From Ignavibacteriota bacterium (lineage in GTDB: Bacteria; Bacteroidota; Ignavibacteria; UBA10030; UBA6906): a DNA stretch of 64,000 bases. A model generated the notes under the pieces. That model saw only the letters and a program-made list of their open reading frames with translations, did not search any database and was not told the origin of the DNA. Of the stretch, positions 5,115 to 54,648 are shown piece after piece. Within the stretch, counting starts at the first letter, position 1, and each line of letters begins with the position of its first letter. The position numbers were made by a program, and so were the translations under genes. Location: the NCBI GenBank assembly GCA_963811705.1, contig CAWESL010000007.1, positions 218,100 to 282,099 on the forward strand. The letters are read 5' to 3'.

Positions 5115-5353
5115 TCATGACCGAGAGGAAACACCCGATAAGGATCTCAGGAAACGTAAGCAAAGTGACCGCGAAATGAAAGACCGCTTCGGACATCCGC
5201 GCCGGACCACCTCGCCTTCTTCGCTTGTATTTTTCGAATCTCTTTTGCTCCATACAAAGAGAGGATGTCCAGGATTCAATGGTGAAAGTCCAACCGCATC
5301 CTTGCACCCTGCGAGATTTCGTTGACCCTGCTTGAGTTTCCCGCTGCGTTCCC

Positions 5354-10508: not shown

Positions 10509-10537
10509 GAAGTCGGCAAAAGGGTTTTCACAAAAGG

Positions 10538-10580
10538 CAACGGCGATCCCGAACGAGGTCGCCGTTGTTGTTTTCGTTTA
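10538..10580. terminator. bidirectional rho-independent terminator between convergent FadL-like and lplA genes
   Basis: Hairpin caacggcga-tcccgaacgagg-tcgccgttg followed by ttgttttcgttt. Confidence 0.5.
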
Positions 10581-10604
10581 ATGAGGGCAGCGCCGGAGCG
10601 GGAG

Positions 10605-11690
10605 TTACAGCGCAGGAGGGACGGGGTTCACCGCAGCCAGGAATGCCCGGCCGAAATCCTCTTCCGCCAGGCCAGGCGACGTGATCGGCAAATCGCGATA
10701 GACTTCACGCACGCGGGCGACGACAGAACGATCGTCTGCATGCACACCGCGCAATGCCGTCTCAACACTGCCGAGGCCGAGTGCAGGGAGCATCGTGAAA
10801 TCGCCCGACAGGGAAATATCTTCGATGCGGTCCCCCGTGAGCCGCGCCGTCAGACGGAGAAGTCCCCCGGGAGCCTTCCATGCCCCTTCGACAATTCGTA
10901 CATCTTCATGGATCTTCACTCCCACGGGGCGCAGCCCTCCCCGCTGCAGCATCCATTCCTCCGATTGGAATCGACGATCCACTTCTACCGCCGCCGCCTC
11001 TTCCCGCTCCGTCCACACCCCCGGGAGGATTTCCGCATCAAGCACTTTCTCGCAGTTCCGAACGTAGAGACCCTTGACATCATCACGAGGAGGCGACGAG
11101 CCGAGCTGCTCGGTGATGGTGGTCATGTACTGCTCGAGACCCTCGACGATTTTGTCTCGCATTTTTTCCGACGACACCCTGAGAACCTTCGCCATCGTCT
11201 TCTTGTCGAACGTGAACATGAGACTCCCGACCACGACATCGGCGACGCCGATCTGCGCCGCCCCCGTCCCGCCGATTTTCTTTCCCCCGACATGGATATC
11301 GTTGACCGGTCGATGATAGGCATTGATCCCGAGTGCCTGGTAGGTCTCCACAAGCGGTCGGATATACACGGCGAAGCGCTCGACCAGATCCGCCGGAAGA
11401 TGTCCCGGCTGGAAGATCCATTGCGCGAAGACCTGTCCGCTATCGAGATAGACGGCGCCGCCTCCCACTTCGCGACGGTAGATGGGAAGTCCGCGCGACC
11501 GGCAGTGGTCGACATCGACTTCCTTCCGGAGATCCTGATGGTAGCCGATGCAGACGTAGGGACTGGAGGGACTGGCGAGGATGATGGTGTCCGGAGTTTC
11601 GGGGAGCATCGCATGACCGACCGCGTGGTAGACGGTCTGCGACCGGAGGGGGGAGACGTTCGTAAGATCAAGCAGCCTCACACGCTTCAC
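10605..11690 (-). CDS. lplA: lipoate-protein ligase A family protein
   Basis: 361 aa. N-terminus KRVRLLDL..., the conserved GGKKIGGTGAAQ (LplA GxKIxGsAQ-type motif) and an LplA C-terminal domain. The GTG start overlaps the hypC stop (GTGA). Confidence 0.8.
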   Translation of the reverse strand: MKRVRLLDLTNVSPLRSQTVYHAVGHAMLPETPDTIILASPSSPYVCIGYHQDLRKEVDVDHCRSRGLPIYRREVGGGAVYLDSGQVFAQWIFQPGHLPADLVERFAVYIRPLVETYQALGINAYHRPVNDIHVGGKKIGGTGAAQIGVADVVVGSLMFTFDKKTMAKVLRVSSEKMRDKIVEGLEQYMTTITEQLGSSPPRDDVKGLYVRNCEKVLDAEILPGVWTEREEAAAVEVDRRFQSEEWMLQRGGLRPVGVKIHEDVRIVEGAWKAPGGLLRLTARLTGDRIEDISLSGDFTMLPALGLGSVETALRGVHADDRSVVARVREVYRDLPITSPGLAEEDFGRAFLAAVNPVPPAL

Positions 11691-11959
11691 GGCAATGGCT
11701 CCGAGCCCGGCGGGAGGGTTTCCAGGTCGCGCAACTCATCGTTCATCTTCAGGAAGCCGAAAATCTCCGCCGCCGCTTCTTCGTCGATCTTGCTGAGCGC
11801 GAATCCGACATGGACGACCACATAGTCCCCGACCTGGACATCAGGAACGTAGGCGAGGCTCACGTCTTTGGAGATTCCGCCGAATTCCACCTTGCCGATG
11901 GTCATGCCGAGCGGATTGGTCTCGATGCGCACAACTTTGCCGGGAACACCTAGACACAT
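11687..11959 (-). CDS. hypC: [NiFe] hydrogenase maturation chaperone HypC/HupF
   Basis: N-terminal MCLGVPGKVV signature and a length of 90 aa. Confidence 0.85.
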   Translation of the reverse strand: MCLGVPGKVVRIETNPLGMTIGKVEFGGISKDVSLAYVPDVQVGDYVVVHVGFALSKIDEEAAAEIFGFLKMNDELRDLETLPPGSEPLP

Positions 11960-12002
11960 TTTCGAATTTGGCGTTTGAATTTTGGAAATGGGAATGGCTT
12001 GC

Positions 12003-12491
12003 TTACGATGTTCCTGACTCCCAGTCTTGGAGGATCCGCTTCACCCTGGCCGTCATCTCGTTCGACACGGCTTCCACCGCCGACGTCATGCCGAATCCAA
12101 CCGAGATATCCATCGGCTGTACCCCGATGAGGTGCAGATGTTCCGGCAGTTTTCCCCTGATCTGCGCAAGACCCAGAACCTCCTGAAACGTCACCTGGTG
12201 CTGGGACATTTTCACTCCTGAGAAGAGCGGGATCGCATCTCGGGAAAGCTCGACCACCGTTGCCGGCGGCTTCCCGGCATTGACCGCATCGAGGAGGAGC
12301 AGATGGCTGCACTCCTCCACGAGCGGCAGCAGATTCAGGCCGAGCGTACCGCCATCGACAAACTCGAACGACGTCCGGGATTCCATCTGCTCCCGCAGCC
12401 TGGCGAGCAGATGGACCCCGACACCTTCATCCCGGTTCAGCGTGTTGCCGAGACCGAGCACGATTTTCCTCCCTGCCGCCGGTTCGTTCAT
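12003..12491 (-). CDS. hupD: hydrogenase maturation endopeptidase (HyaD/HybD/HupD family)
   Basis: LGLGNTLNRDEGVGVHLLARL matches the GxGNxxxxDDGxG protease motif. Its ATG overlaps the hynL stop (ATGA). Confidence 0.85.
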   Translation of the reverse strand: MNEPAAGRKIVLGLGNTLNRDEGVGVHLLARLREQMESRTSFEFVDGGTLGLNLLPLVEECSHLLLLDAVNAGKPPATVVELSRDAIPLFSGVKMSQHQVTFQEVLGLAQIRGKLPEHLHLIGVQPMDISVGFGMTSAVEAVSNEMTARVKRILQDWESGTS

Positions 12492-14220
12492 TGCAGAACA
12501 ACGTTCAGCTCGGTGGAGACGTTCCCAACGTCCTTGCCTTCAGCGTCGATCATGTGGATGGCACACGCCATGCACGGATCGAAGGAATGGATGGTGCGCA
12601 AGATTTCGAGTGGCCACTCGGGTTTTTCCATTTTCGTCCCGACAAGAGAGGATTCGTAGGCGCCTTCCTGCCCCTTGTGGTCTCGCGGAGACGCGTTCAG
12701 GTCGTCGGCACGACGAGTTGGTAGTTCGCGATCTTGCCATCGTCGATGACGATCCAGTGTCCGAGCGCGCCGCGGGGTGCCTCCATGAAACCGAACCCCT
12801 CCGCGTGTGACGGCCAGGTGCCGGGATCCCACTTGTCGTTGTGAAGGTCCGAGTGTTCCCGGCCTTGATCTCGGCGATAAGCTCGCCGTAAAACTCGCGC
12901 AGCCAGTCTGCGATGACTTTGGTCTCGATCGCCCGCGCCGCCGTCCGTCCAAGCGTCGAAAACACCGCGCTGATCGGCGCATCGAGTTTCTTGAGCGTCA
13001 GCCGACAAGCTCTCGCGTTTGCTCATGGCCTTTCGCGTACAGCGCAAGGACGCGCGCGAGGGGGCCGACTTCCATCGGCGCTTCATTCCATCGCGGGGAC
13101 TTCAGCCAGGAATACTTCTGTTCGACCTCGAGGTTTTTATACGGCGATTTCGGCCCCGTGAAATTGAGTTCTGTTTCGCCGCGCCAGGGATGAAGACCGA
13201 CCTGGTCGCCACCGCTGTACTTGTACCAGCTATGGGCAATGAATTCCTTCATTTTGTCGAAATCCCGCGGATCTGGCTCGATGATGTTCGCGAGATCCTT
13301 GTTCATGATCGCGACACGGGGGAACAGGTACTTTGACGTGTCTTTCGGATCAACGCCGGGGAATTCTCCCACGTCAGGAAATTGCCGAGCTCACCGCCGA
13401 TGCCCGCGTAGTCTTTATAGTACGGGGCTATGGCGAGGATATCGGGGATGTAGACCTGATCGACGAACTCGACGATCTTGTCGATCGAATCGGCGATGAT
13501 CGCGAGGCGTTCCGCGTTCAATGCGGTGTCGCTGTTGAGATCGATCGGCATCGGGATGCCGCCCACCACGAAATTCGGGTGCGGTTCTTTCCCCCGAAGA
13601 TCGTGTGCATCTTGTCACATGCCGCTGCCAATCAAGGGCTTCGAGGTAGTGCGCGACGGCGAGCAGGTTGATCTCCGCCGGGAGCTTGTACGCCGGGTGC
13701 CCCCAGTAGGCATTCGAGAAGATCGACAGTTGCCCGCTCGTTGCGATGCCTTGCACCTTCTTCTGCACATCGGCGAAGTAGGCGGGAGAAGAATTGCCCC
13801 ACGCGGAAATCGCCTGTTGGATTTCCGAGGTCTTCTTTGGATCCGCCTTGAGCGCGGCGACGACGTCCACCCAATCGAGCGCATGGAGGTGATAGAAATG
13901 CATGACGTGATCGTGGATGTACTGTTGCGCGATCATCATGTTACGGACGATATTCGCCGCCTGGGGAATCCGGATGTCGAGGGCATCTTCGACCGACTGG
14001 ATGGACGCAAACGCGTGCACGGTGGTGCAGACCCCGCAGGCACGCTGGGTGAACGCCACGCTTCCCGCGGGTCCCGCCCTTTCAGGATGATTTCCATTCC
14101 CCGGACTATGGTGCCGGATGAATATGCCTTCGTGATGGTGTTGCTTTCATCCAGTTCGGCTTCGATCCTGAGGTGTCCCTCGATGCGGGAAATCGGATCA
14201 ACGACGATACGATGTGCCAT
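12488..14220 (-). pseudogene. hynL: [NiFe] hydrogenase large subunit (HynL/HyaB-like), interrupted by ~7-8 single-base frameshifts
   Basis: Homologous segments appear in successive frames. First [20 protein letters not shown]..., then [14 protein letters not shown] (the RxCGxC Ni-binding motif), then ...VGGIPMPIDLN..., then ...[10 protein letters not shown]..., then [13 protein letters not shown]..., then [10 protein letters not shown]...VVPTT, then NASPRD...HSFDPCMACAIHMI (the C-terminal DPCxxCxxH motif). Together they are collinear with E. coli HyaB. AGGAG lies upstream of the ATG at 14220. Confidence 0.85.
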
Positions 14221-25776: not shown

Positions 25777-25805
25777 GCATGTGTTCCTTTGGCTGAGGAC
25801 GTCTC

Positions 25806-26584
25806 ATGAAAGATACGTACCGGGGGATTTTGATGGTTGTCCTGACAGCCCTCATAGCTGCAGGGACGGCGCCCGCCCAATGGGTGAACACCAACGCGCC
25901 GAACGGAGTTCAGAATAAGACGTCATTCTTCGCGACAAGCTCTGCACTATACGTGACGTGTAATGCCGGGATCTTTCGGACCACGGATTTCGGCGCGACT
26001 TGGGCTCCATGCGATTCCGGGCTCATGTCGCTCTTCGAGAATTGCAGGGACCTTTACGCTCGGAACATTCCGCGCGAACGACCCGGCAGGGTTCTGGACC
26101 ATGGCCGGAACCGGATTCTTCTGAAATGACGGCGTATGGCATCAACAACCTGCAACTGGACAAGAACGATTTCTATGCCGGGACCGGTGGCGGAGTTTAT
26201 CGATCAACGGCAACAATCTCTTCGCTGCTGTGTACGGATCAGTTGTTACCTCCATCCCCGCTGCAAACGATCACGTTCCATCCGGATTCGTCCTGTCGCA
26301 ACACTATCCGAATCCCCGCCCGCCTGACTAAGCATGGGCCCAGGGCAGGCGGTCGGGCGGGCGTTCAATCCAAAAACAGTCATCGGCGGACAGGGGACAG
26401 TGAGGTTCGGCTCGAGGTATTCGACATCCTCGGACGCAAAGTGGCGACCATTGCTAATGGCAGGTACTCGGCGGGGAAATATACGTTTGCCTTTGACGGG
26501 ACGAACCTTGCGAGTGGGGTGTACCTTTGCAGACTCACAGCAGGTTCATACTCTGCTCTTCGGACGATGTTGTTGATCCGTTGA
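25806..26584 (+). pseudogene. BNR/Ycf48-like repeat protein with T9SS C-terminal sorting domain, fragmented across 3 frames
   Basis: Signal peptide followed by BNR-like [12 protein letters not shown] and [10 protein letters not shown] in different frames. The terminal [63 protein letters not shown] is intact. No single continuous ORF. Confidence 0.5.
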
Positions 26585-34777: not shown

Positions 34778-36277
34778 ATGCTCAGCATTGGATTTGACCT
34801 TGGAAGTTCCTCCATCAAGTGTTCCATCTGGGATGTTGCCAACGGTGTTGTTGTCGCTTCAGGCCAGCATCCCGCGACGGAAATGGAGATGCGGGCACCG
34901 AAGCCCGGCTGGGCGGAACAAGACCCCGACGTATGGTGGGACTATGTTGTCCTTCTGACCCGGAAGCTCCTGCGGGAATCCAACGCCGCCGCGGACCAGA
35001 TCCGAGCGATTGGTATCGCCTATCAGATGCACGGCCTGGTGATCGTCGACGCATCGGGGAAAGTTCTCCGGCCGTCCATCATCTGGTGTGACAGCCGGGC
35101 GGTGGAAACCGGTGAGGCGGCTGCACGCGCACTCGGCGCAGAATATTGCAGGACTCACCTGCTGAATGCTCCCGGGAATTTTACCGCTTCAAAATTGCGA
35201 TGGGTGAAGGACCACGAGCCGGAAACGTACAGGAAAATTCACAAGATCATGTTACCGGGTGACTATATCGCAATGAAAATGACCGGCGATGTCACCACGA
35301 CAGTCAGTGGCCTGACAGAGGGGATCTTTTGGGACTTTGCTCGCGGAGAGATCAGCAAGGAGCTGCTGGAATATTACGGTATCAATTCCGGACTGCTTGC
35401 CGAGGTGAAACCGACGTTTGGCACCCAGGGTGTTCTTTCTCGTGCCGCGGCGACGGAACTGGGCCTGGGAGCAGGGATCCCGGTTGCGTATCGTGCGGGC
35501 GACCAGCCCAATAACGCTTTGTCTCTGAACGTTCTCGAACCCGGGGAAGTGGCAGCCACAGCCGGCACCTCGGGCGTCGTGTTCGCCGTTACGGAGTCCG
35601 TGGTCACCGACCCCGAATCCCGCGTCAACGTTTTTGCCCACGTGAACCACTGCAAGGATCGGACCCGGCTGGGGATGCTCCTGTGCATCAACGGGACCGG
35701 CATCCTGAACTCGTGGCTCAGGAAGAACGTCGCTGCAGACCTTACGTATGACGCGATGAACGCCCTCGCCGCGACCTCCCCTGTAGGGGCAGGCGGCCTC
35801 AAATGTCTGCCTTTCGGAAACGGGGCTGAGCGCATGCTCGGGAATGCGTCGATTGGTTGTCATTTTGCCGACGTCGACTTCCAGCGCCACACTCGCGCCG
35901 ACGTCCTGCGTGCTTCGCAGGAAGGCCTCGCGTTCTCGTTCCGGTACGGCACCGATATCATTCGATCGCTTGGAATTCCGATTTCCGTTGTCCGCGCAGG
36001 AACGGCGAATCTGTTCCTGAGCCCGCTGTTCAGCCAAACCGTGGCGACGGTTCTCGGTGCGTCTGTTGAACTTTTTAAGACGGACGGCGCTCAGGGAGCA
36101 GCGCGCGGCGCGGCAATCGGCGCCGGCCTCTACCCATCGACGTCCGATGCGTTTACATCACTCACCCGTACTGCGACCATTGACCCCGTACCGCAGGCGG
36201 CGGAGCGGACCGCCGAGGCGTACGCCGAATGGTTGCGTCATCTCGAGCTCCTGCTTGAACGCAGGGGCGCAGTCTGA
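34778..36277 (+). CDS. xylB: xylulokinase (FGGY carbohydrate kinase)
   Basis: N-terminal FGGY signature IGFDLGSSSIKCSIWD, 499 aa, immediately upstream of xylA. Confidence 0.8.
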   Translation: MLSIGFDLGSSSIKCSIWDVANGVVVASGQHPATEMEMRAPKPGWAEQDPDVWWDYVVLLTRKLLRESNAAADQIRAIGIAYQMHGLVIVDASGKVLRPSIIWCDSRAVETGEAAARALGAEYCRTHLLNAPGNFTASKLRWVKDHEPETYRKIHKIMLPGDYIAMKMTGDVTTTVSGLTEGIFWDFARGEISKELLEYYGINSGLLAEVKPTFGTQGVLSRAAATELGLGAGIPVAYRAGDQPNNALSLNVLEPGEVAATAGTSGVVFAVTESVVTDPESRVNVFAHVNHCKDRTRLGMLLCINGTGILNSWLRKNVAADLTYDAMNALAATSPVGAGGLKCLPFGNGAERMLGNASIGCHFADVDFQRHTRADVLRASQEGLAFSFRYGTDIIRSLGIPISVVRAGTANLFLSPLFSQTVATVLGASVELFKTDGAQGAARGAAIGAGLYPSTSDAFTSLTRTATIDPVPQAAERTAEAYAEWLRHLELLLERRGAV

Positions 36278-36304
36278 TCACTAGAGCATTGCAAGGAGCA
36301 CTCT

Positions 36305-37636
36305 ATGACCGTGCGTACGTCTGGAACGAAGGAATACTTTCCTGGCATCGGAAAAATCCCATTTGAGGGGAACGATTCAAAGAACCCGCTGGCCTACCGC
36401 TGGTACGACGGAAATCGGATGATCGGCGGCAAGACCATGAAAGACTACTTCCGCTTTGCGGTGGCGTACTGGCATAGCTTTGGCGCCACAGGGAAGGATC
36501 CTTTCGGCGATGAAACGCGGGACCTGCCATGGAACCATGCCGCGGACGCGGAGTCGAAAGCGAAAGCCAAGATGGACGGCGCGTTCGAGTTCATCACGAA
36601 GCTCGGCCTCCCCTTCTATTGCTTTCATGATTTCGATGTGGTCGAGGAGGGCGAGTCTATTCCCGAGTCCGACAAACGCCTTCAGATGATGGTCGATCAT
36701 GCCAAACAACTGCAGCAGAGCACCGGCGTGCGGTTGCTCTGGGGGACGGCGAACCTTTTTTCGCATAAGCGGTACATGAACGGCGCAGCGACAAATCCCG
36801 ATTTTGCAGTGCTGACCTATGCCGGGACCCAGGTGAAGCGCGCGCTCGACACGACCATTGCCCTTGGCGGGACCAACTACGTCTTCTGGGGCGGAAGAGA
36901 GGGTTACAACACCCTCCTAAACACGAACATGAAGAGAGAGAAGGACCACATGGCCCGGTTTCTCTCAATGGCGAGGGACTATGCCCGGCAGCATGGGTTC
37001 AAGGGGACGTTTCTGATTGAGCCGAAACCGATGGAGCCGACGAAACACCAATACGACTACGACGCCGAAACGGCAATCGGATTCCTCCGCCACTACGGAC
37101 TCGACAAGGATTTCAAGCTCAATATCGAAGTGAACCACGCAACGCTGGCAGGCCACACGTTCCAGCACGAAATTCAATGTGCGATCGACGCGGGGCTGTT
37201 CGGCAGCATTGATGCCAACCGGGGCGACCCGCAAAATGGATGGGACACCGATCAATTCAGCGTCAACCTGTACGAAATGGTCGAGGCGCTGCTGGTAGTT
37301 CACGAGGCGGGGGGGTTCGGCAACGGCGGCGTCAACTTCGATGCAAAGATCCGGAGACCCTCGACCGATCCGGAAGACCTGTTTATCGCACATATCACTG
37401 CAGTCGATCTCTTCGCACGCGCTTTGCTCGTGGCAGACGCCATCCTCCGGGACTCGGCGTATCTCAAGTTCCGAAAGGAACGCTATTCTTCCTTTGATGC
37501 GGGGGAAGGGAAGCGTTTCGAGCGCGGCGAACTGACGCTGGATGACTTGCGGAAGATTGCTCTCGCCCAGGGAGAACCCCGTCAGATCAGCGGCAAGCAG
37601 GAACTCTACGAGCAGATCCTTACGATGTTTACCTGA
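36305..37636 (+). CDS. xylA: xylose isomerase
   Basis: 443 aa with clear XylA conservation ([16 protein letters not shown]...WGGREGY...FLIEPKP). Confidence 0.9.
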
Positions 37637-37657
37637 CAGAACGCAATCGGCAAAAGC

Positions 37658-37694
37658 GCAAAGGCCTGGAGGACATCCGGGCCTTTGTTGTTTC
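37658..37694 (+). terminator. rho-independent terminator after xylA
   Basis: Hairpin caaaggcctgg-aggacat-ccgggcctttg followed by ttgtttcc. Confidence 0.5.
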
Positions 37695-37794
37695 CTCCCC
37701 ACCTGGCGGACCAGAAGCATCCCCTCGTCGCCCTTCATTCCGCCATCGGGTGTTCATCGAATCAGGACCATCGACCGTGTTGCCGTGAATCCAT

Positions 37795-37965
37795 TGACAT
37801 TTAAGCGGTACATGTAGACACCGCTGGACAATCCTGCACCATCAAATGTGAAATCGACCGTACCCGCTGGATATCTTCCATCAGCCAGAACCGCCACCTA
37901 TCGTCCGAGCACATCGTACACCACCAACCTCACCCGACTGTTCCCTGTCCACTGTACCACGCTCT
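37795..37965 (-). repeat. decayed T9SS CTD-coding remnant (contains in-frame stop) directly adjacent to the intact CTD of the GH10 gene
   Basis: The reverse-complement encodes a VRLVVYDVLGR*VAVLADGRYPAG...GVYMYRLN-like sequence. It is roughly 70% identical in nucleotides to the neighbouring intact CTD (38060-38225). Confidence 0.5.
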
Positions 37966-38017
37966 CCCCACCGCGCGATAGGGAGATGGGGAGAACGGGA
38001 GACGTGGAGATTAATCG

Positions 38018-39571
38018 TCAACGGATCAACAACATCTTCCGTATTGCAGTGTACGAGCCTGCGGTGAGTCTATAAAAGTACACGCCACTTGCAAGGTCCG
38101 TCCCGTCAAAGGCAAACGTATATTTCCCCGCGGGGTACCTGCCATTGGCCAGCGATGCCACCTGACGACCGAGAACGTCGTAGACCACCAGGCGAACATC
38201 ACTGCCCCCTGTCCACTGTCCACTGATGACTGTTTTCGGATTGAACGGGTTCGGGTAGTTTTGGAACAGGTCAAAGGCGAGTGGCGTTTCATCCGACGCA
38301 TCCACAGAAAGGATCTGATCTCCTGTCGTGAAGCTTCCGGTCAGCGAGTACGAACTTGTGCCGCTGTCGTTCACTGCAGAAACGTGCCAGAAGAATTGCG
38401 TATTCGACGCCAGGGGGCTGAGCCTGGCAACGGTATCAGGAACGGTTGTGTCTGCCACGAGCGATGCAAACTGCCCGTCGGTTGCTACCTGGATGCGATA
38501 CGTAAGCGCAATCTTCGAGGGATGCCACTGGAGAACCGCATTTCTCTGGATCCCGCTGGTGCCGAGTGGCGACGCCAGGACCGGTTTTATGGGAGAAGCC
38601 AGATATCGGCGCAGCCATTGGAGTGCCGGTCGTTCCGTTCCATTTGACCGGAGAAGATATCCGTTTGTCTGCCAAATATACCCCTGTTCATATCCCCACA
38701 ACGTGATCCCGGCGACGCCTGGATTCTCCCAAAATATCGGGAAGTATGTCTGATAGTTCTGCAATTGAATCGAGTCCACCGGTTCATTGATATCGAATTC
38801 GGAGATATACACCGGCAAGCCAAGTGCCGTCAGTCTGTTGAGATTGCTTTGGATTGTGCTGATCGGGTAGATATATCCGCCCGATGTGGCCGCAGGGCTC
38901 CTGAATTCGAAATAGTGCCCTTGAATTCCGATGCCGTCGATAAGGTGCCTGACCTTCAGCGTATCAATGATCCGAATGTAGGTATCGGTAGTCGAATTGC
39001 TCTGGAGGATGTTATAGTCGTTGATCAGCAGCTTCACGCTGGGAAAGAACGCATGCCGGGCCATCGCAAACGAGGCGACGACCCAATCCCAGCCGGTCGC
39101 GCCGGCTCCGCCGAGGGCTGCGGAATACGCCGGCACAGCGTGGAGAGGTTCGTTGACGACGTCAACCAACGAGGTCGATCCGTATCGCGCCCCAATCGTG
39201 TCGATCCATTTCTTGACCTCGGCCCGCTGACTCGCTGTATCCAGCGACGCGATCCATGACGGCTGTTGGTTTCCCCAGACGAGGTTGTGGTGTTTGTACG
39301 GAAACGAGTTGTTCACAGAGAATTGGTAGATGTTGTCAAGCGCGGAGAATGAAAAATTCCCCTGGACTCCTTCGACGCTCCCCCATTTCCCGTCGTTCTC
39401 GGGAGTGACCTGATTGAAGTAGTTCAAGAACGTGGGCCGCATGGTCCCGAGGCTGGAGCCAAGGAATTTCGGTTGCCCCTTCGCAAGCTGCGCAATCGAC
39501 GGGGTGGATACTCCAACCATGAACCACCCGAACAGGATTGCTTTCACAATTGTACTGGATGCCTTCACCAT
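38018..39571 (-). CDS. GH10 endo-1,4-beta-xylanase with T9SS C-terminal sorting domain
   Basis: GH10 motifs HHNLVWGNQQPSW, VDVVNEP and ISEFDI, Fn3-like region, [63 protein letters not shown]. Start set at the internal Met MVKASST (signal peptide); the tracked ORF extends to 39853. Confidence 0.8.
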   Translation of the reverse strand: MVKASSTIVKAILFGWFMVGVSTPSIAQLAKGQPKFLGSSLGTMRPTFLNYFNQVTPENDGKWGSVEGVQGNFSFSALDNIYQFSVNNSFPYKHHNLVWGNQQPSWIASLDTASQRAEVKKWIDTIGARYGSTSLVDVVNEPLHAVPAYSAALGGAGATGWDWVVASFAMARHAFFPSVKLLINDYNILQSNSTTDTYIRIIDTLKVRHLIDGIGIQGHYFEFRSPAATSGGYIYPISTIQSNLNRLTALGLPVYISEFDINEPVDSIQLQNYQTYFPIFWENPGVAGITLWGYEQGYIWQTNGYLLRSNGTERPALQWLRRYLASPIKPVLASPLGTSGIQRNAVLQWHPSKIALTYRIQVATDGQFASLVADTTVPDTVARLSPLASNTQFFWHVSAVNDSGTSSYSLTGSFTTGDQILSVDASDETPLAFDLFQNYPNPFNPKTVISGQWTGGSDVRLVVYDVLGRQVASLANGRYPAGKYTFAFDGTDLASGVYFYRLTAGSYTAIRKMLLIR

Positions 39572-39579
39572 GAGCCACC

Positions 39580-41532
39580 TTATTGATTCTTTGTTGATTG
39601 CTCCGACGATATTGCCGGAGGGTACGCGCCGACGTAGCCGTTGATGGACGCGGGGGAACGCAACAGCCCCTTGATCTCCGCGGGGATCGCCGCGCCTGCA
39701 GTCGAAGCGGAGAACGTCCCGACCGTTCCGAAGTTGCCGAGCTGACGGCTTCTGAACAATGGGCCGTCGTAGTCCAGCATCGTACGATTCTCGTGTGCGA
39801 AGTCCGGTACGGCCTTTTGTAACTCGGCGAAAGTCCCAAAGCCCGATTGGCATCGGCCGTTCGGCGCAGGGCTCCAGAACATCAGGGGGTACGCACAGTG
39901 CGCAGCCTCGCGCACGGCGATGTTGTTGTCTATCGCCCGAACCTGAGGCCGCGGCAGCCGATCACAAAGCATCGCCAGTTGCCATACAAAGAGGAGCGGG
40001 CGCTGATACGAAGCGTCCCCTGTCAGAAGGTTGTTGACGAATTCGTGCCCATCCCTCTGCTCGACGTCCGGCCCAGTGCTTGCATGCCAGCCGAACCGAT
40101 CCCCGGCGGCAACCCGGGCATTCCTCCCAATGCACGCCGTGCTATTGACGAACGTGTTCTGATAGATGCGGACATTTGAACTGTTCAATACCAACATGCC
40201 GTGATCGCAATTCACAAACACGTTGCCGGCACAAATGGCCCCTTTGGAGATTTCGAAAAAGAACCCGTTGTCGCTCGGCCACAGTTGGTCAGTGGCGATG
40301 ACGGGTGTCTTCCTGCCGACATCCTGTACCCAATTGTTCGTGAAGACGCCGTCTACCTCCCCGACGTCGTACCAGATCCCGTTCGAGTGCGGCAGATCGA
40401 TGATCAGATTATCGTTGCAGGTGGCCCGATGACATTGATCGAAAATCTTCACTGCGGCAGGAAAGTATCCGGTGATGTTTTCAATGTTGTTCCGGGTGAA
40501 AATATTCCCTTCCAGCAACACGTCGGCTGAGCCAATGATATAAACCCCCTCGGTACTCGTGTCGCTTACTTTGCAATGACGCATGGTAAAATGATCGCCG
40601 CGAAAGTACCCGGCGACACGCGAGCAGTAGGATATCGTGCAGTTATCCAGCGTTGCTCCAACGACATCCTTTCCAAAGGTGGATGGGTCGGACAATCCGA
40701 CGGGCTCTTTCCCCTCGATTTCAAGGGCCCGATAGGCATACTGCGTGAAAGTGATACCCCGGATGGTGTACCCCTTGCGATCGGACTGTACGCCGTGACA
40801 ATCCTTCGTCGTCCTGAGTATTGCGCAGTCGTGCGCCGTGAGTTCCACGAGATGCGTTGTCGGGTCAACTCCGATGTACACGTTCCCCGAATCATAATCG
40901 ATGCAGTACGTGTTCGAATCGACTTCTCCTTCCCATCCCACGGCCTGCAGAAACCGTCCGTCGGCGAACACCATGTCGTTGTTGAACCGATAGAGCGGTG
41001 TTGTCTTCCCTTCCCGTTTCCGTGGCCACCAGTCCGCCGGCGACGAAGGGAAAAGGTGCTTCCATTTTGTAACCCATAACCCGTTTCCCAGATTTTCCCA
41101 GTTGGTCGCAACCTCCGTCCCTTTCAGAATCGGTTCTTCATCCGCGTACGGCTGAATCGTGACTCCCTGGTTGAGCTCGAGATTCCCGGTCCGATAGATC
41201 CCTCCCCGCATGACAATGACGTCGCCTGTGCGTACCCTTGCGATCGCGGATGCAATGGAGGTCGGCTTCTCGAGCGATTCACCCGATTGATCTGCCAGCC
41301 CGTCGACGGCGACGTAATAGACCGTCCCTGCCCCCGCGGGAAGCGAGTACGTCTGCCGGACCGGCCCGTACGGTCCTCCCGAGGGTTGAGCGGAAGAGGA
41401 GTCTGCGATCAGGCATGCAACCAGGAACGACACTCGAACCGTTGAGGCGAATCTGGTTTTTAACCAATTCGGAGTTGGAGCGATCATAGCGTGGCCTAGA
41501 GATGTTGCGTTAGTCCCGGCAGGGAACTTCAC
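39580..41532 (-). CDS. right-handed parallel beta-helix repeat protein (pectate/polysaccharide-lyase-like fold), secreted
   Basis: 650 aa with signal peptide and repeated NxxI/VxxC beta-helix-type segments (NNWVQD, NVFVNC, NTFVNS). Confidence 0.5.
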   Translation of the reverse strand: MKFPAGTNATSLGHAMIAPTPNWLKTRFASTVRVSFLVACLIADSSSAQPSGGPYGPVRQTYSLPAGAGTVYYVAVDGLADQSGESLEKPTSIASAIARVRTGDVIVMRGGIYRTGNLELNQGVTIQPYADEEPILKGTEVATNWENLGNGLWVTKWKHLFPSSPADWWPRKREGKTTPLYRFNNDMVFADGRFLQAVGWEGEVDSNTYCIDYDSGNVYIGVDPTTHLVELTAHDCAILRTTKDCHGVQSDRKGYTIRGITFTQYAYRALEIEGKEPVGLSDPSTFGKDVVGATLDNCTISYCSRVAGYFRGDHFTMRHCKVSDTSTEGVYIIGSADVLLEGNIFTRNNIENITGYFPAAVKIFDQCHRATCNDNLIIDLPHSNGIWYDVGEVDGVFTNNWVQDVGRKTPVIATDQLWPSDNGFFFEISKGAICAGNVFVNCDHGMLVLNSSNVRIYQNTFVNSTACIGRNARVAAGDRFGWHASTGPDVEQRDGHEFVNNLLTGDASYQRPLLFVWQLAMLCDRLPRPQVRAIDNNIAVREAAHCAYPLMFWSPAPNGRCQSGFGTFAELQKAVPDFAHENRTMLDYDGPLFRSRQLGNFGTVGTFSASTAGAAIPAEIKGLLRSPASINGYVGAYPPAISSEQSTKNQ

Positions 41533-50888: not shown

Positions 50889-52778
50889 TTAGTTTGAGAC
50901 GAATGTCGTAATGCTCGACGGGTCGAGCGTAGCCTGGAAGCTTCCGTGGACAGTCGGGATGTCGGTTCCCCGGGTGCAGTTTTTCGCGATCGACGTTGTA
51001 TAAGACGAAAACGACGCCGCGGGCCCGTTTGCCATGACAAAGCCTTGTTGGATCGGCGACGACCCGGTGTTTATCGCGACGATGACAATCTTCGAAGTGG
51101 TGCCGTCTCGGTATGCCGAGATCCAGACATTCCGCTGGGGAGTGGCGAAGCAGCCGATCCTCGTATATCCCGGGCGTACGAACTTCGCGAATTGCGACAT
51201 AACATAACCGCGCTTGGTCACGGTCCCGTCCTCGGCGATCGGTCCATAGTACCTCACGATGTACCACCAGACGTACGCATTCATGCCGGCGTTCAGGCAA
51301 TCATGGATTTCCTTCCCGGTTGCGAGGACCGCCGACCAGCTCGTGTCAAGCACCAGATGTTCCGTCATCCAGAAGTCTTTTCCTTTGCTGACGGCAAGAG
51401 GATACGGACCGAGCCCTCCGCCGTAGATATGTCCGGCGATGATGGATAAATTCGCTGCTGCCGCAGAATCATTCAGCGTCGGGTCAGACAATGCGTGGAC
51501 GAAATTCTGGGATTCCGGCATCATCACCCTGGTCCCGATGGACCCGGCATTATTCTTGGTGAACTTCAGGAACTGCGCGCCATTCCAACTGCACGACTCG
51601 TACGTGACGTTGGCGTCCGGTTCATTCTGCAGCGATACGGCATACAAGGGCACGCCATTCCCTGCCATGTAGTCGGCGAAGTTCCTGAGGTGCGCGGCAT
51701 AGGATGCGTAGGACGAATCGTTGAGCACCCCCGCAACGATACTGTCACTGCTTTTCATCGCCGGCGGAGGGGTCCACGGCGTCGCGAAAACAATGGCGCC
51801 GAGCGATTGCGCAAGCGTCGCCGTCGGCAGGTTTGCACTGAACTCGCTCACGTTATCCGTGAAGGGGATCCGCAGGCGAAGGATCGTCAGCCCGATCTGA
51901 CCGGGCCCTGTCCCGAATGCCGTTTGAACCTGGGCGGAGGTCATGTCGGGCCGCCAGGGCAGAATATTCGCTCCTCCAAATCCCCGGATCGTCTGGAGCA
52001 CGCTGTCCAGCACCACTCGCGAAGTCGGTATCGCGACCTGTGCATTCACAACGAAGTCCAATGTGGTATCGCTTTCGACGACAACATTGTCAAATTCGGC
52101 GGGAAGCACATTTGGCGAAGTTCCGACCGCCGTGTCTATGCGCACGGAGAATGCCGTCGCTGACACTGTCCGCAGGATTCCTGGGGCCGTGTTTGGTGCC
52201 GGCAACCCAAGGGGGATTTGCAGCGAGGGGACACCGCCGTTTCCTTCGCCGAAGACCATCTTCCTTGTCTGCATTTCGTTCCCTGCCTGCAGACTATAGA
52301 AATAGACACCGGCAGCCACCCGGTGCCCGCTGCCATTGTTGCCGTCCCAAAGAACGCTATGCGTGCCCGGTGACTGGGTCCCGGAACGCATTGAACGTAT
52401 CACCCTCCCGAGAATGTCATAGATCGTGACTTTGATATCCTCTTGCGTCTTGAGCTTGTATGGGATGGCCGTCGACGTCATAAACGGGTTCGGATAGTTC
52501 TGCTCGAGTTCAAATTTGGCCGGCAGAGTATTGGCAGGCATAACGGAAGTGAGGGAGAGTTGCATCTGGTATTTTCCCGTCGAGTCCGTACGCACAGAAG
52601 TAGCGTTCGTCGGATTCGCGGTCTGCGCAAAGGTGATAGAGGCATTTCGCACTGGTGCAGTCGACGTCGTCACGCTGCCTTCCACGACGACAGTCTGGGC
52701 GGAGACGATGGCGGGAGGCAGTGCCAGGCCAAGGCAAAGGGCCATGAGGATCAGGCGGCCGAAGGAAAGCTTTGTCAT
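50889..52778 (-). CDS. GH30 (subfamily-8-like glucuronoxylanase) fused downstream of an N-terminal Ig-like domain and an internal T9SS-CTD-like domain
   Basis: Signal peptide, then a CarbopepD_reg-like beta-sandwich, then a CTD-like block (KFELEQNYPNPFMTSTAIPYKL...VTIYDILGRVIRSM...GVYFYSLQAGNEMQTRKMVF), then GH30 motifs GFGGANI, SLQNEPD and WMTEH. Single continuous ORF. Confidence 0.6.
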   Translation of the reverse strand: MTKLSFGRLILMALCLGLALPPAIVSAQTVVVEGSVTTSTAPVRNASITFAQTANPTNATSVRTDSTGKYQMQLSLTSVMPANTLPAKFELEQNYPNPFMTSTAIPYKLKTQEDIKVTIYDILGRVIRSMRSGTQSPGTHSVLWDGNNGSGHRVAAGVYFYSLQAGNEMQTRKMVFGEGNGGVPSLQIPLGLPAPNTAPGILRTVSATAFSVRIDTAVGTSPNVLPAEFDNVVVESDTTLDFVVNAQVAIPTSRVVLDSVLQTIRGFGGANILPWRPDMTSAQVQTAFGTGPGQIGLTILRLRIPFTDNVSEFSANLPTATLAQSLGAIVFATPWTPPPAMKSSDSIVAGVLNDSSYASYAAHLRNFADYMAGNGVPLYAVSLQNEPDANVTYESCSWNGAQFLKFTKNNAGSIGTRVMMPESQNFVHALSDPTLNDSAAAANLSIIAGHIYGGGLGPYPLAVSKGKDFWMTEHLVLDTSWSAVLATGKEIHDCLNAGMNAYVWWYIVRYYGPIAEDGTVTKRGYVMSQFAKFVRPGYTRIGCFATPQRNVWISAYRDGTTSKIVIVAINTGSSPIQQGFVMANGPAASFSSYTTSIAKNCTRGTDIPTVHGSFQATLDPSSITTFVSN

Positions 52779-52959
52779 CTGGTTGCAGTCGCCGCTGAAC
52801 AGGCAGGATTCATGGCGGGGAGTCATGTTCACAATGTCCTTTGCGCATCTCCAATGGTTTTTCAATTCCCCTGTTTCAATGATGCCATGGGGCAGAACTT
52901 TTCGATTTGGTTTCTGAGATGACGAGGGTGGGATGGGGAATGCCTCCTCCGCACTCGCC

Positions 52960-54648
52960 TTATTTGTATGTATAGAGTCGCACCTTTTGAATGCCGAACG
53001 TGCTCCCGGGAAGATTGAGATGTCTTCCCTGATGGTCTTCATCGCCGTTCAAGCGACGTCCCGCACTCCATCTTCCGTTTATGATGTTCCCTTCCTCGAT
53101 GCTCTCGATCCCTGCGGTTGAGCCGTCAGCGGAAGAGGGCCTGAACGTGACCACCACGCCGCTTCCCGCAACATAGTACTCGTTGCTTCCCGTCATGATA
53201 ATCAGCCCGCCGTATCGGGGGACGCTCCCTTCGACCCTCGCCGCATAAGGCCAGGAGTATTCGTGTTTCACCGTAAAGGTGAACTTCCCGAGAGTGATTT
53301 CCTCCGTCTGGGCAGCGCTGTCGAGGAGAAACCCGGCCATTGTCCCCGTGCCCTGGTGCTCGAGGATCAGCGGCGTGAGGGAGCGCAGAATACCGTATGC
53401 GCGGCCGATATGTCGGACCAGGACGCTGTCCGCTGATTCGATGGAGAATGGATCGTACCCCATGGCATTGTGCGCGCCAAAAGCGAAGAAGGCATTGGTA
53501 AGACTCTGATGGCGGTCCACCTCGGGGACAAAGACGGCGTTCCCGTCACGATCATATTTCCCCAGCCATTCGGCAAAGCTCGGGAAATAGATGTCGGGAG
53601 CAAGAAAGTCGATACGCGGTGCAGCCGCTCGCCACACGTCCATCAGGTGAGGAAGCGGACCGGCACTGGGATATTGCCCGGGTCTGTAATTGGGACGAAT
53701 CAGGGCGGCGTTGACATACATCGGGAGCGGGTATTCTGCTTTTCCCGCTGCCGCGACAGAATCTGTATAGACGGCAAAGCTCCACGCCATGAAAATTTCG
53801 TCAGTCGCCAGCCCGGTACCGAAGACCTGTTCCCACGTCCCCGTCGTCTTCATCCCCTGACTGGCCCAGGCCTTTCCTACTGCTTCATTCATCGCACTCT
53901 TGTTGTTTTGAAGATCGGCCAGGAGCTGTTGCGGAACCGGTTGCCCGAACGCGTGTTCGGCCTCCACACAATAGTCACGTGCCTGGGGAATCATCCCGAT
54001 TTCGTTCTCCACCTGGACCATGATGACGGTATTTTGCACCGCATCGACGGCGCGGAGATGCTTCATCAAAGCGGAGAACGCCCTTGCATCGGCATTCCTG
54101 TTTGCGGCGCTGAAGGGGGTGAGAATCTCCAGTGCGCGCCCTTCCTTCGTCCGCGCACGCGGAAACCGCTCCTGGTTGGTTTTCACCCAGGATGGAGCGT
54201 AGCAGGACATGCTGTTTTTCCACGAACCAAACCAGAGGACGACGATCTTCAAGTCGTAGTGCCGGGCGGACGCGATCAGCTTGTCCAGGAGCGCGAAGTC
54301 AAATCTGCCCTCCCGCGGCTCGATGAGCTCCCAGTACACGGGCATCAGGATGGTGTTGAGGTTCATCGCCCTGAGCTTCGGCCACATCGGTTCGATGTAC
54401 TTCGTATCCGACGCGCTCGAATTTCCAAGCTCGCCGCCGATGATGAGATAAGGCTTGTTATGGACGATCAGCTGGGTCGCCGTTCCTTGCTTCTGCAAAT
54501 GAGGGAGTGCGAGCGAAGATTGTGCCAGAGCGGACGAAACCGAGAGCGCAACCGCCAGGAACGCCGCAATGCCGATCCGGCCTGCGTGCAAACCCGGGGG
54601 CACCCTTCCCCATCCGAGGACTCTCCGGAAGATTCTCATCGCGGGCAT
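52960..54648 (-). CDS. GH-A clan glycoside hydrolase, GH35/GH42-like with DUF5597-type C-terminal domain
   Basis: N-terminal TIM-barrel region NTILMPVYWELIEPREGRFDF...VQVENEIG resembling GH35/42. Start chosen at an internal Met with signal peptide. Confidence 0.45.
   Translation of the reverse strand: MPAMRIFRRVLGWGRVPPGLHAGRIGIAAFLAVALSVSSALAQSSLALPHLQKQGTATQLIVHNKPYLIIGGELGNSSASDTKYIEPMWPKLRAMNLNTILMPVYWELIEPREGRFDFALLDKLIASARHYDLKIVVLWFGSWKNSMSCYAPSWVKTNQERFPRARTKEGRALEILTPFSAANRNADARAFSALMKHLRAVDAVQNTVIMVQVENEIGMIPQARDYCVEAEHAFGQPVPQQLLADLQNNKSAMNEAVGKAWASQGMKTTGTWEQVFGTGLATDEIFMAWSFAVYTDSVAAAGKAEYPLPMYVNAALIRPNYRPGQYPSAGPLPHLMDVWRAAAPRIDFLAPDIYFPSFAEWLGKYDRDGNAVFVPEVDRHQSLTNAFFAFGAHNAMGYDPFSIESADSVLVRHIGRAYGILRSLTPLILEHQGTGTMAGFLLDSAAQTEEITLGKFTFTVKHEYSWPYAARVEGSVPRYGGLIIMTGSNEYYVAGSGVVVTFRPSSADGSTAGIESIEEGNIINGRWSAGRRLNGDEDHQGRHLNLPGSTFGIQKVRLYTYK

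Follow-up and report, generated by a model that had tools for sequence, protein, structure and literature searches.

How does a secretion-sorting domain that lacks its first strand, belongs to no cargo protein and carries an internal stop codon come to lie directly behind an intact domain of the same type? The question is raised by 64,000 nucleotides (nt) of contig CAWESL010000007.1 of an Ignavibacteriota bacterium (assembly GCA_963811705.1, positions 218,100 to 282,099), hereafter called the window, in which the GH10 xylanase gene GH10a ends in a type A C-terminal domain (CTD) of a type IX secretion system (T9SS) and is followed by a second, truncated CTD. This remnant is almost certainly the relic of a neighbouring cargo gene, here designated gene B, of which the last 66 codons (a heptamer linker and CTD strands 2–7) survive, because the gene B CTD core in a sister genome, L095, matches it at 182 of 185 bases, the 3′ flank is orthologous, and the order of the surrounding genes is that of the sister genomes. 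Taken as a whole, the locus is very probably explained by a gene B relic that was left behind when a replacement bounded by CTD-coding DNA removed the rest of the gene.

The remnant domain

Type A CTDs carry five motifs and adopt a seven-strand immunoglobulin (Ig)-like fold (PMC10202324). As a family, they guide export by the T9SS and are removed by PorU. The sequences first concerned here are the following:

37757–37954, minus strand: remnant CTD, a 5′-truncated T9SS type A domain downstream of the GH10 gene and in frame with it
37934–37954, minus strand: heptamer tract of the remnant, three units (CAGTGGA CAGGGAA CAGTCGG), the putative recombination junction on the right, where the window becomes orthologous to gene B of L095 again (37941–37954)
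37757–37933, minus strand: remnant CTD core (strands 2–7), the CTD core of lost gene B, with TAG at 37898–37900 and TGA following at 37754–37756
38018–39571, minus strand: GH10 xylanase gene GH10a, 517 amino acids, with signal peptide, GH10 domain, fn3-like domain and type A CTD, ending in TGA at 38018–38020 (open reading frame (ORF) and Pfam)
38021–38299, minus strand: intact CTD of GH10a, with QNYPNPFNP at 38237–38263 (CTD hidden Markov model and PF18962)

Read on the minus strand, GH10a closes with ...AIRKMLLIR and its TGA; the same frame then runs through 39 codons (RLISTSPVLPISLSRGGESVVQWTGNSRVRLVVYDVLGR) to the TAG and through a further 47 codons (VAVLADGRYPAGTVDFTFDGAGLSSGVYMYRLNVNGFTATRSMVLIR) to the second TGA. 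In a six-frame translation of the window, the two halves of the remnant match the GH10 CTD with phmmer E-values of 4.4e-15 and 4.9e-06, and the likeness is therefore more than chance. With the stop repaired, the remnant peptide scores 31.1 bits on TIGR04183 (cut-off 23 bits), over model positions 12–70 of 72, and 20.1 bits on PF18962, which is under the cut-off of 27 bits that the GH10a CTD reaches with 33.6 bits. Motifs D (SGVYMYRL) and E (RSMVLIR) are retained; the QNYPNPFNP strand is missing, with a spacer in its stead. Judged by its sequence, the remnant appears to be a type A CTD minus that first strand.

It is neither a complete seven-strand Ig-like domain with N-terminal motifs A and B nor the C-terminal end of a signal-peptide-bearing cargo protein: only the GH10 stop and 63 nt of spacer lie upstream, and the TAG interrupts the frame. 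Because it has no upstream ORF, signal peptide or complete CTD, the relic is non-functional DNA in the 3′ region of the GH10 gene.

Gene B in the sister genomes

A database protein of 517 amino acids (P0001) is 100% identical to GH10a, and the 90% cluster to which the GH10 protein belongs has two further members, on contigs L094 and L095. Both contigs agree with the window in the gene order GH115, esterase, GH43, beta-helix and GH10, followed by xylA, xylB and SDR. In the interval between GH10 and xylA, the latter being on the opposite strand, both sister contigs hold an extra gene that the window lacks. This is gene B, which in L094 encodes 597 amino acids with a signal peptide, a weak Beta_helix match (right-handed beta-helix) and a type A CTD.

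BLAST aligns the window with L095 in two blocks, 41289–38072 with 4280–7500 (92.2%) and 37954–34778 with 9384–12561 (91.7%), and the second block opens at the first base of the remnant heptamer tract (37954). Remnant positions 37941–37757 correspond to the gene B CTD core of L095 (9397–9584) and differ from it three times: by GAG to TAG at 37900, the only non-synonymous change, and by synonymous changes at 37880 and 37868. From the GH10 stop to the xylA stop there are 2148 nt in L095 but 381 nt in the window, which has thus lost 1767 nt net. The features downstream of the remnant core are these:

37689–37753, minus strand: 3′ flank of the former gene B, with the corresponding flank in L094 and L095 as its ortholog (BLAST block 37777–34778 with L094 9560–12559, 90.9%)
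37658–37688, plus strand: intrinsic terminator hairpin of xylA
36305–37636, plus strand: xylA, convergent with GH10a and the remnant

Remnant and 3′ flank together align to L094 and L095 at 91%–98%. With an intact syntenic ortholog, orthologous flanks on both sides and disabling lesions—the loss of the promoter and about 531 codons, and the GAG to TAG change at 37898–37900—the remnant has the properties of a pseudogene. The preliminary description of this DNA had recognised a decayed CTD beside an intact one, and was right to do so: the segment is an in-frame, 5′-truncated CTD and corresponds to the 3′ end of a gene that is intact in L094 and L095 at the same position. The stop codon, however, arose from GAG (Glu) and not from CAG.

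Farther afield, L081 (GH10 76% identical) has no remnant, gene B or spacer, and the more distant GH10 loci L092 and L093 have other genes downstream. A scan of the genome contigs with xylA returned nothing closer than 70% identity, and exact-match look-ups of xylA and P0001 turned up no contig.

Divergence of the window (34778–41289) from L094 and L095 is itself mosaic, with a backbone of 0%–5% (long stretches of 0%–3%) and patches of a few hundred bases at 15%–30% in xylA, xylB and the beta-helix gene. Such a pattern suggests frequent homologous imports from more distant lineages.

The remnant and its intact neighbour

The remnant and the GH10a CTD are adjacent, in the same orientation and in the same frame, which is the arrangement expected if the GH10 CTD had been duplicated in tandem and its distal copy had then decayed. 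The two agree, however, at only 126 of 202 nt (62%) and at 69% of amino acids, and over 58 aligned codons identity is 0.29 at third positions, where synonymous divergence (dS) is saturated, against 0.74 at first and second positions, with a non-synonymous divergence (dN) of 0.29. Values of this kind imply long divergence under protein-level selection in two functional genes. The remnant is moreover 98% identical to a CTD that in L095 belongs to another, intact gene, and L081 has neither copy. Duplication with decay is therefore hardly worth entertaining, and in its recent form it is refuted by the saturated third positions together with the gene B match in L095. On the codon pattern, the remnant and the GH10 CTD are old paralogs from two different genes, with no excess nucleotide identity between them. 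The preliminary description had put the segment at ~170 bp and ~70% identity to its neighbour and had described it as lying in tandem with an intact CTD. Homology stands, but the segment measures about 200 bp, the identity is the 62% given above, and third positions agree no more than amino-acid conservation requires.

Two further candidates were tried on the same pair and rejected. Stop-codon read-through into a double CTD would depend on an in-frame arrangement, which is not kept in L082 or L085, two contigs with a similar layout (see below). A variable/template repeat pair of a diversity-generating retroelement is at odds with an identity of only 62% and with differences that follow codon position; a reverse-transcriptase gene was not specifically searched for.

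The non-orthologous patch and the mosaic GH10 CTD

The window contains eight type A CTDs within a xylan-utilisation locus (GH10 twice, GH43, GH30, GH115, xylA and xylB). Four features bear on the DNA that separates the remnant from GH10a:

38198–38232, minus strand: heptanucleotide tract of GH10a, five units (CAGTCAT CAGTGGA CAGTGGA CAGGGGG CAGTGAT), encoding the strand 1–2 linker VISGQWTGGSD
38021–38139, minus strand: 3′ part of the GH10a CTD core, similar to the BNR paralog and non-orthologous to the sister genomes
37955–38017, minus strand: 'type W' spacer of 63 nt from the GH10 stop to the remnant, a CT-rich tract plus hairpin (arms 37985–37996 and 37961–37972)
26381–26581, plus strand: CTD of a BNR-like pseudogene and nearest paralog of the GH10a CTD in its 3′ part, with a heptamer tract one unit (7 nt) shorter and a shifted frame

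The CTDs at 26.4 kb (BNR) and 38.0–38.2 kb (GH10a) had been described as ~80% identical. They indeed share 78% of amino acids and 80%–81% of nucleotides, as well as an exact match of 33 nt and a 12-letter alternative-frame peptide. With a third-position identity of 0.66 (dS 0.63, dN 0.11), they are the only CTD pair in the window with excess nucleotide identity.

Measured per 100 nt, divergence of the window from the sister genomes runs at 0%–8%, rises to 17% inside the GH10 CTD (38189–38090) and is 2%–4% past 37954. Here, a non-orthologous patch (about 38190–37955) occupies the place of about 2 kb in L095, and both of its ends fall in CTD-coding DNA. Within it, positions 38071–37955, comprising the last 17 codons of the GH10 CTD, the stop and the 63-nt spacer, have no orthologous match in L094 or L095. 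The GH10a CTD core changes its affinity along its length: the first 58 nt match the L095 ortholog at 54 positions (93%) and the BNR paralog at 41 (71%), whereas the last 122 nt (38139–38018, stop included) match the ortholog at 87 (71%) and BNR at 106 (87%). Fisher tests support the switch with p = 0.0008 for the ortholog and p = 0.013 for BNR, and the core is thus a mosaic of ortholog-like and paralog-like sequence.

The end of the CTD and the spacer in the window (ATGTTGTTGATCCGTTGACGATTAATCTCCACGTCTCCCGTTCTCCCCATCTCCC) resemble those of L085 (ATGTTGTTGATTCGTTGACAATTAATCTCACAGTCTCCCGTTCTCCCCATCTCCC), an unrelated 906-bp contig; the first ~40 nt of the type W spacer are ~90% identical to the L085 spacer and are not orthologous to the spacer of L094 and L095, in which CTD end and spacer are nearer to the L082 version. 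At the right junction, gene B of L095 has GCATTGGACAG, whereas the window shares ACAGTGGACAG with the spacer end of L085. In all likelihood, the patch has its endpoints inside CTD-coding DNA.

The spacer occurs once in the window, and the BNR copy has no type W spacer. A search of Rfam with the spacer matched no family, and the consensus fold that RNAalifold finds for six spacers is weak, at -5.9 kcal/mol, and shows little covariation; as a single sequence, the hairpin reaches a z-score of only -1.75. The spacer could be a terminator or a C-rich Rho-loading site, which is inference only.

CTD-core conversion in a sister genome

L094 and L095 are 98.2% identical, and yet 81 of their 257 differences fall within 500 nt of the gene B CTD (binomial p = 2e-51). 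Of the informative sites in the L094 gene B CTD core, 50 resemble GH10 and 35 resemble gene B, and for ~100 nt, up to a point just short of the stop codon, the likeness to GH10 is unbroken. The L094 core is evidently the product of gene conversion between adjacent CTD paralogs, in near-identical genomes and independently of the event in the window.

The preliminary description had proposed that CTD-coding paralogs are recombination hotspots by which secreted-protein genes are reshuffled, and this idea is supported: the patch endpoints, the differences between L094 and L095 and the GH10a mosaic all lie in CTD-coding DNA, and the exchanged unit appears to be the CTD core between the heptamer-repeat linker and the stop. 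Excess nucleotide identity, for which that description had asked, is present in the GH10a/BNR pair and absent from the adjacent pair, and rearrangement endpoints do lie in the CTDs of related genomes. CTD cores in this lineage would accordingly be exchangeable segments bounded by heptamer linker and stop codon, and the loss of gene B fits such a picture. The segment itself is an ordinary gene relic.

How gene B may have been lost

A single recombination event would be the simplest account of the patch. In it, about 2 kb of ancestral sequence, reaching from the 3′ part of the GH10 CTD across the intergenic region into gene B as far as its CTD linker, would have given way to a short foreign module of ~117–236 nt. 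What came in would have been the 3′ end of a CTD and a stop codon, followed by the type W CT-rich hairpin spacer and the first part of a heptamer tract. On the left, exchange would have taken place in the GH10 CTD core at about 38139–38190, and on the right in the heptanucleotide tract (CAGNGNN repeated) of the gene B CTD at 37941–37954, with the common CTD core and the heptamer tract supplying the homology for exchange. The most likely donor would be a paralogous 'CTD, spacer, heptamer (ghost CTD)' locus such as those of L085, L082 and L086. The window genome would in this way have lost the promoter, the body and the first CTD strand (NPFNP motif) of gene B. That it was one event and that a paralog was its template is put forward tentatively, with a likelihood that falls a little short of even.

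The two adjacent CTDs did not simply cross over with each other, since one hybrid CTD would then be all that was left. The spacer of L094 and L095 has no heptamer tract, and a simple direct-repeat deletion in an L095-like ancestor is therefore unlikely. Collapse of two similar CTD repeats during assembly, with artefactual loss of gene B, might be suspected since repeats of ~200 bp with 60%–80% identity lie close together and the sister contigs look like long-read assemblies with indel errors. Collapse would, however, produce one hybrid CTD rather than an intact CTD, a unique spacer absent from the sisters and a truncated CTD, and no run of identical bases common to the adjacent CTDs is longer than 13. 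Together, these observations rule out a collapse for practical purposes, and an artefact is barely credible.

A more serious possibility, though still an unlikely one, is that two events were involved: a microhomology (illegitimate) deletion reaching from past the GH10 terminator hairpin into the gene B linker, and a separate conversion of the GH10 CTD 3′ end and spacer by a paralog. The segment would remain a relic of gene B. CTD-core conversion without deletion is what L094 and L095 display; the 3′ part of GH10a is BNR-like and yet the BNR copy has no type W spacer; and CTD fragments cut at another site, SGVYFY, occur in L082 (5060–5134) and L093 (1890–2027 and 3859–3978). Two independent tracts would, on the other hand, have to abut exactly, and the spacer itself has been replaced (it is L085-like and not L094/L095-like), and the replaced tract is continuous to the junction.

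Several observations weigh against the account of a CTD-bounded replacement, or at least against its details. The donor locus was not found, the spacer being unique within the 64 kb searched. The change at the 3′ end of the GH10 CTD is unpolarised, since the outgroup L081 is too distant (third position 0.27–0.30 in the CTD) and is without gene B and spacer. The near-identity of remnant and L095 is unexceptional, 33% of the 185-nt windows in the block being as similar; special conservation of the remnant (98.4% identity to L095) was for this reason dropped, and three differences in 185 nt, ordinary for this pair of genomes, speak instead for a fairly recent loss. Gene B of L095 (7790–8115) is frameshifted after the signal peptide, possibly through an assembly error. 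Lastly, divergence of the window from L094 and L095 is patchy everywhere, including the 15%–30% patches in xylA, xylB and the beta-helix gene, and the patch could therefore have been imported, as an allele, from a more distant lineage in which the deletion was already present.

On that import hypothesis, the deletion arose in a more divergent lineage and the whole allele was brought in by homologous recombination between orthologous loci, the segment again being a relic of gene B. The 0%–5% backbone with its many patches looks import-like, and the 17% patch in the GH10 CTD is similar. The right end of the import would, however, have to fall within about 15 nt of the deletion junction, as the window is 98% identical to L095 from 37941 on, and the hypothesis only shifts the origin of the deletion to another lineage, with the junction still in the heptamer tract. 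It appears somewhat less likely even than the two-event scheme.

As a separate observation on L095, its beta-helix gene (4121–5992) is also split by a frameshift, whereas L094, 98% identical, has neither split; the frameshifts in both L095 genes are probably long-read assembly indel errors and not biology.

Recurrence of the layout in other uncultured Bacteroidota

Nine proteins, of which five are short orphans, were retrieved with the remnant peptide as query, and a metagenome pattern scan yielded only 5 loci. L082, L084, L085 and L086 all show an intact CTD, a stop, a CT-rich spacer and a 5′-truncated CTD that starts in the heptamer tract. L082, which has the same sequence as L091, holds a second copy of the spacer too, followed by a shorter fragment cut at SSGVYFY; the L084 spacer differs and holds inverted heptamers; the L085 spacer is near that of the window; and in L086 the intact CTD is cut by the contig end. 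L088 and L089 have the spacer of L086 along with the last few upstream CTD bases, which are all that L086 holds there, and no truncated CTD. In L093, a 62% GH10 ortholog, CTD fragments follow two consecutive genes. An exhaustive profile search found about 9 orphans of 100 amino acids or fewer among the 150 best representatives, as well as two proteins with two CTD cores in one ORF. A control for the frequency of truncated CTDs, in 80 other Bacteroidota loci, met almost no CTDs of this subfamily.

Saturated dS is seen in every truncated copy, with a dN of 0.17–0.39 against every relative. Each would appear to be recently derived from a functional CTD, as can be demonstrated in the window.

Recurrence raises the question of whether the truncated copy is a functional element, either a silent donor cassette for replacement of CTD cores or a small expressed protein (compare the 63–66-amino-acid ORFs beginning MRTVDSRVRL... 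in other metagenome-assembled genomes (MAGs)), with the heptamer tract as an on/off site for recombination or slippage. The layout does recur with conserved spacer and junction at several unrelated loci; in L082, L084 and L085 the truncated copies form uninterrupted ORFs that retain a CTD-like protein sequence despite saturated dS; heptamer periodicity is kept in the DNA where the peptide changes (CAGGGNN five times in L082 against CAGTGNN five times); and the BNR copy is exactly one heptamer short. The window copy, however, has a nonsense codon and is merely the end of a gene found in sister genomes. The reading frame from spacer to core varies among loci, the spacer consensus structure is weak with little covariation, and the CTD is cleaved off after secretion, so there is no obvious gain from varying it. 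Low dN/dS is equally well explained by recent derivation of each ghost copy from a functional CTD. A function of this kind is accordingly very improbable, and the copy in the window is better regarded as the gene B relic described above.

Further details were noted at these loci. Fragments of the CTD 3′ end that start at SGVYFY follow the GH10 gene of L093 (1890–2027), its GH42-like gene (3859–3978) and the ghost CTD of L082 (5060–5134), and SGVYFY is a second recurrent truncation point. At ~250–560 of L086, the truncated CTD has lost its last strand to three tandem repeats of ~84 nt rich in GGGACAGG. In L088 (206–331) and L089 (3232–3357), this CT-rich spacer precedes an expanded tract of six forward heptamers, which pairs with an inverted set of four in a long imperfect hairpin before a same-strand ORF (MVKLDLDGAWEF...). 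A spacer-like hairpin, CCCCCATCTCCCTA...TAGGGAGAGGGGGAG then ACAGTGGACAGG, lies at L087 217–270 and L090 406–459 with no CTD nearby, and the spacer/heptamer motif is therefore not confined to CTD genes. In P0150 (554 amino acids) and P0269 (234 amino acids), a first CTD is directly followed by a 5′-truncated second core in one ORF; partial tandem CTDs thus also occur in frame.

The heptanucleotide tract

In the GRYPAG-type CTD subfamily, the linker between strands 1 and 2 is encoded by five tandem heptamers, of which two examples are:

L081 tract: CAGTGAT CAGTGGT CAGTGGT CAGTGAC CAGTGTC
L082 tract: CAGGGAT CAGGGTC CAGGGGT CAGGGAA CAGGGAC

The fourth base of the L082 tract is G in 5 of 5 units, and the encoded peptide is TGIRVQGSGNRD against TVISGQWTGGSD; periodicity is therefore kept at the DNA level. 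Within the window, heptamer tracts occur in GH10a and the remnant only (shuffled-sequence mean 0.69). Five units make up the GH10 tract in the window as in L094 and L095, whereas the BNR paralog has one fewer, with a frameshift there and other frameshifts elsewhere in that gene.

It is conceivable that the tract (CAGNGNN, three to six times) is a dedicated site acting at the DNA level and is not preserved for its linker-coding role alone: the CTD core would then be a cassette that can be moved, with ghost CTDs and 'CTD end, spacer, heptamer' modules as the donors by which cores are overwritten and downstream cargo genes deleted, and gain or loss of one 7-nt unit would switch T9SS targeting. 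Such a scheme is improbable. A programmed or phase-variable role may exist; nothing here demonstrates one.

Other CTD-bearing genes in the window

The BNR-like T9SS cargo gene (~25800–26581, plus strand) is spread over three reading frames with several frameshifts and resembles an intact 192-amino-acid gene of L082. In spite of this decay, it is this gene whose CTD stands nearest among the paralogs to the 3′ part of the GH10a CTD, with a dN/dS of about 0.18. Between the CCC and TTC codons of YPNP|FNP, the pseudogene contains a 47-nt GC-rich palindromic insertion (CGCCCGCCTGAC...GTCGGGCGGGCG, 26317–26363, plus strand). An insertion of equal length and about 80% identity sits at the same site in an unrelated orphan CTD of L082 (~2965–3011), the core of which is only ~40% identical, and both hosts have a linker frameshift too. 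The insertion may be a miniature insertion element that targets the NPFNP-coding motif.

An internal CTD had also been reported in a GH30 fusion, and the ORF at 50889–53042 (minus strand) bears this out. It encodes a signal peptide, a CarboxypepD_reg-like domain, a CTD-like/FlgD_ig domain with QNYPNPF (~52254–52526), an Ig-like region and GH30; the frame runs past the CTD-like domain without a stop, and the protein does not end in a CTD. Fusion at the end of a CTD could have produced it, or a CTD may have been recruited as an internal Ig domain.

Implications

For the turnover of secreted-enzyme genes, the three genomes provide a case from a xylan-degradation locus where homology comes not from a mobile element but from DNA that codes for a secretion signal: one cargo gene has been lost, one CTD core overwritten and one CTD turned into a mosaic. 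For annotation, many of the 60–100-amino-acid entries that Bacteroidota MAGs list as 'T9SS type A sorting domain-containing protein' are probably ghost ends of lost genes and not small proteins. The heptamer-repeat linker, with its periodicity at the DNA level, offers a lead for read-level tests of recombination and slippage.

Comparison with known systems

A limited literature search found no paper on CTD-core exchange, ghost CTDs or the heptamer linker; several known systems nevertheless invite comparison. Like repeats of the repetitive extragenic palindromic (REP)/bacterial interspersed mosaic element (BIME) kind and hairpin terminators, the spacer belongs to a short, conserved intergenic family with hairpin potential that stands right after stops at several loci. 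It differs in being tied to one CTD subfamily, in ending in the CTD linker heptamer, and in its weak fold and want of an Rfam match.

The hmw genes of Haemophilus influenzae have 7-bp repeats upstream and undergo phase variation by slipped-strand mispairing. Here too there is a tandem heptanucleotide tract, in this case inside the gene, where a change of one unit shifts the frame, and the BNR copy is one unit short. The tract has, however, only three to six imperfect units and no length polymorphism in GH10 among the window, L094 and L095, and it is an endpoint rather than a demonstrated switch.

In the pilE/pilS system of Neisseria, promoterless 5′-truncated silent copies lie by the expressed copy, share boundary sequences with it and act through gene conversion. 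A promoterless truncated copy beside an expressed one, common boundaries and exchange of segments are found in the present locus as well. In contrast to pilE/pilS, there is no sign of a programmed system, of multiple cassettes at the locus or of a benefit from varying a domain that is cleaved off; the window has one ghost copy, and it is disabled.

With bacterial gene relics in general, the remnant shares an intact syntenic ortholog in sister genomes, 5′ truncation, loss of the promoter and a nonsense codon. It departs from them in that both ends of the replaced tract lie in paralogous domain-coding DNA, and in that the same kind of relic, with a related spacer, occurs at unrelated loci.

The closest parallel among T9SS cargo genes is offered by the adhesin modules of kgp, rgpA and hagA in Porphyromonas gingivalis, which undergo domain rearrangement and allelic exchange (PMC5266723). 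In both cases, repeated paralogous domain-coding segments of cargo genes are shuffled by homologous recombination or gene conversion into mosaic genes. In P. gingivalis, however, it is the adhesin domains that are shuffled, with the CTD treated as a conserved, constant end (PMC5266723), whereas here the CTD core itself is exchanged and a whole cargo gene has been lost.

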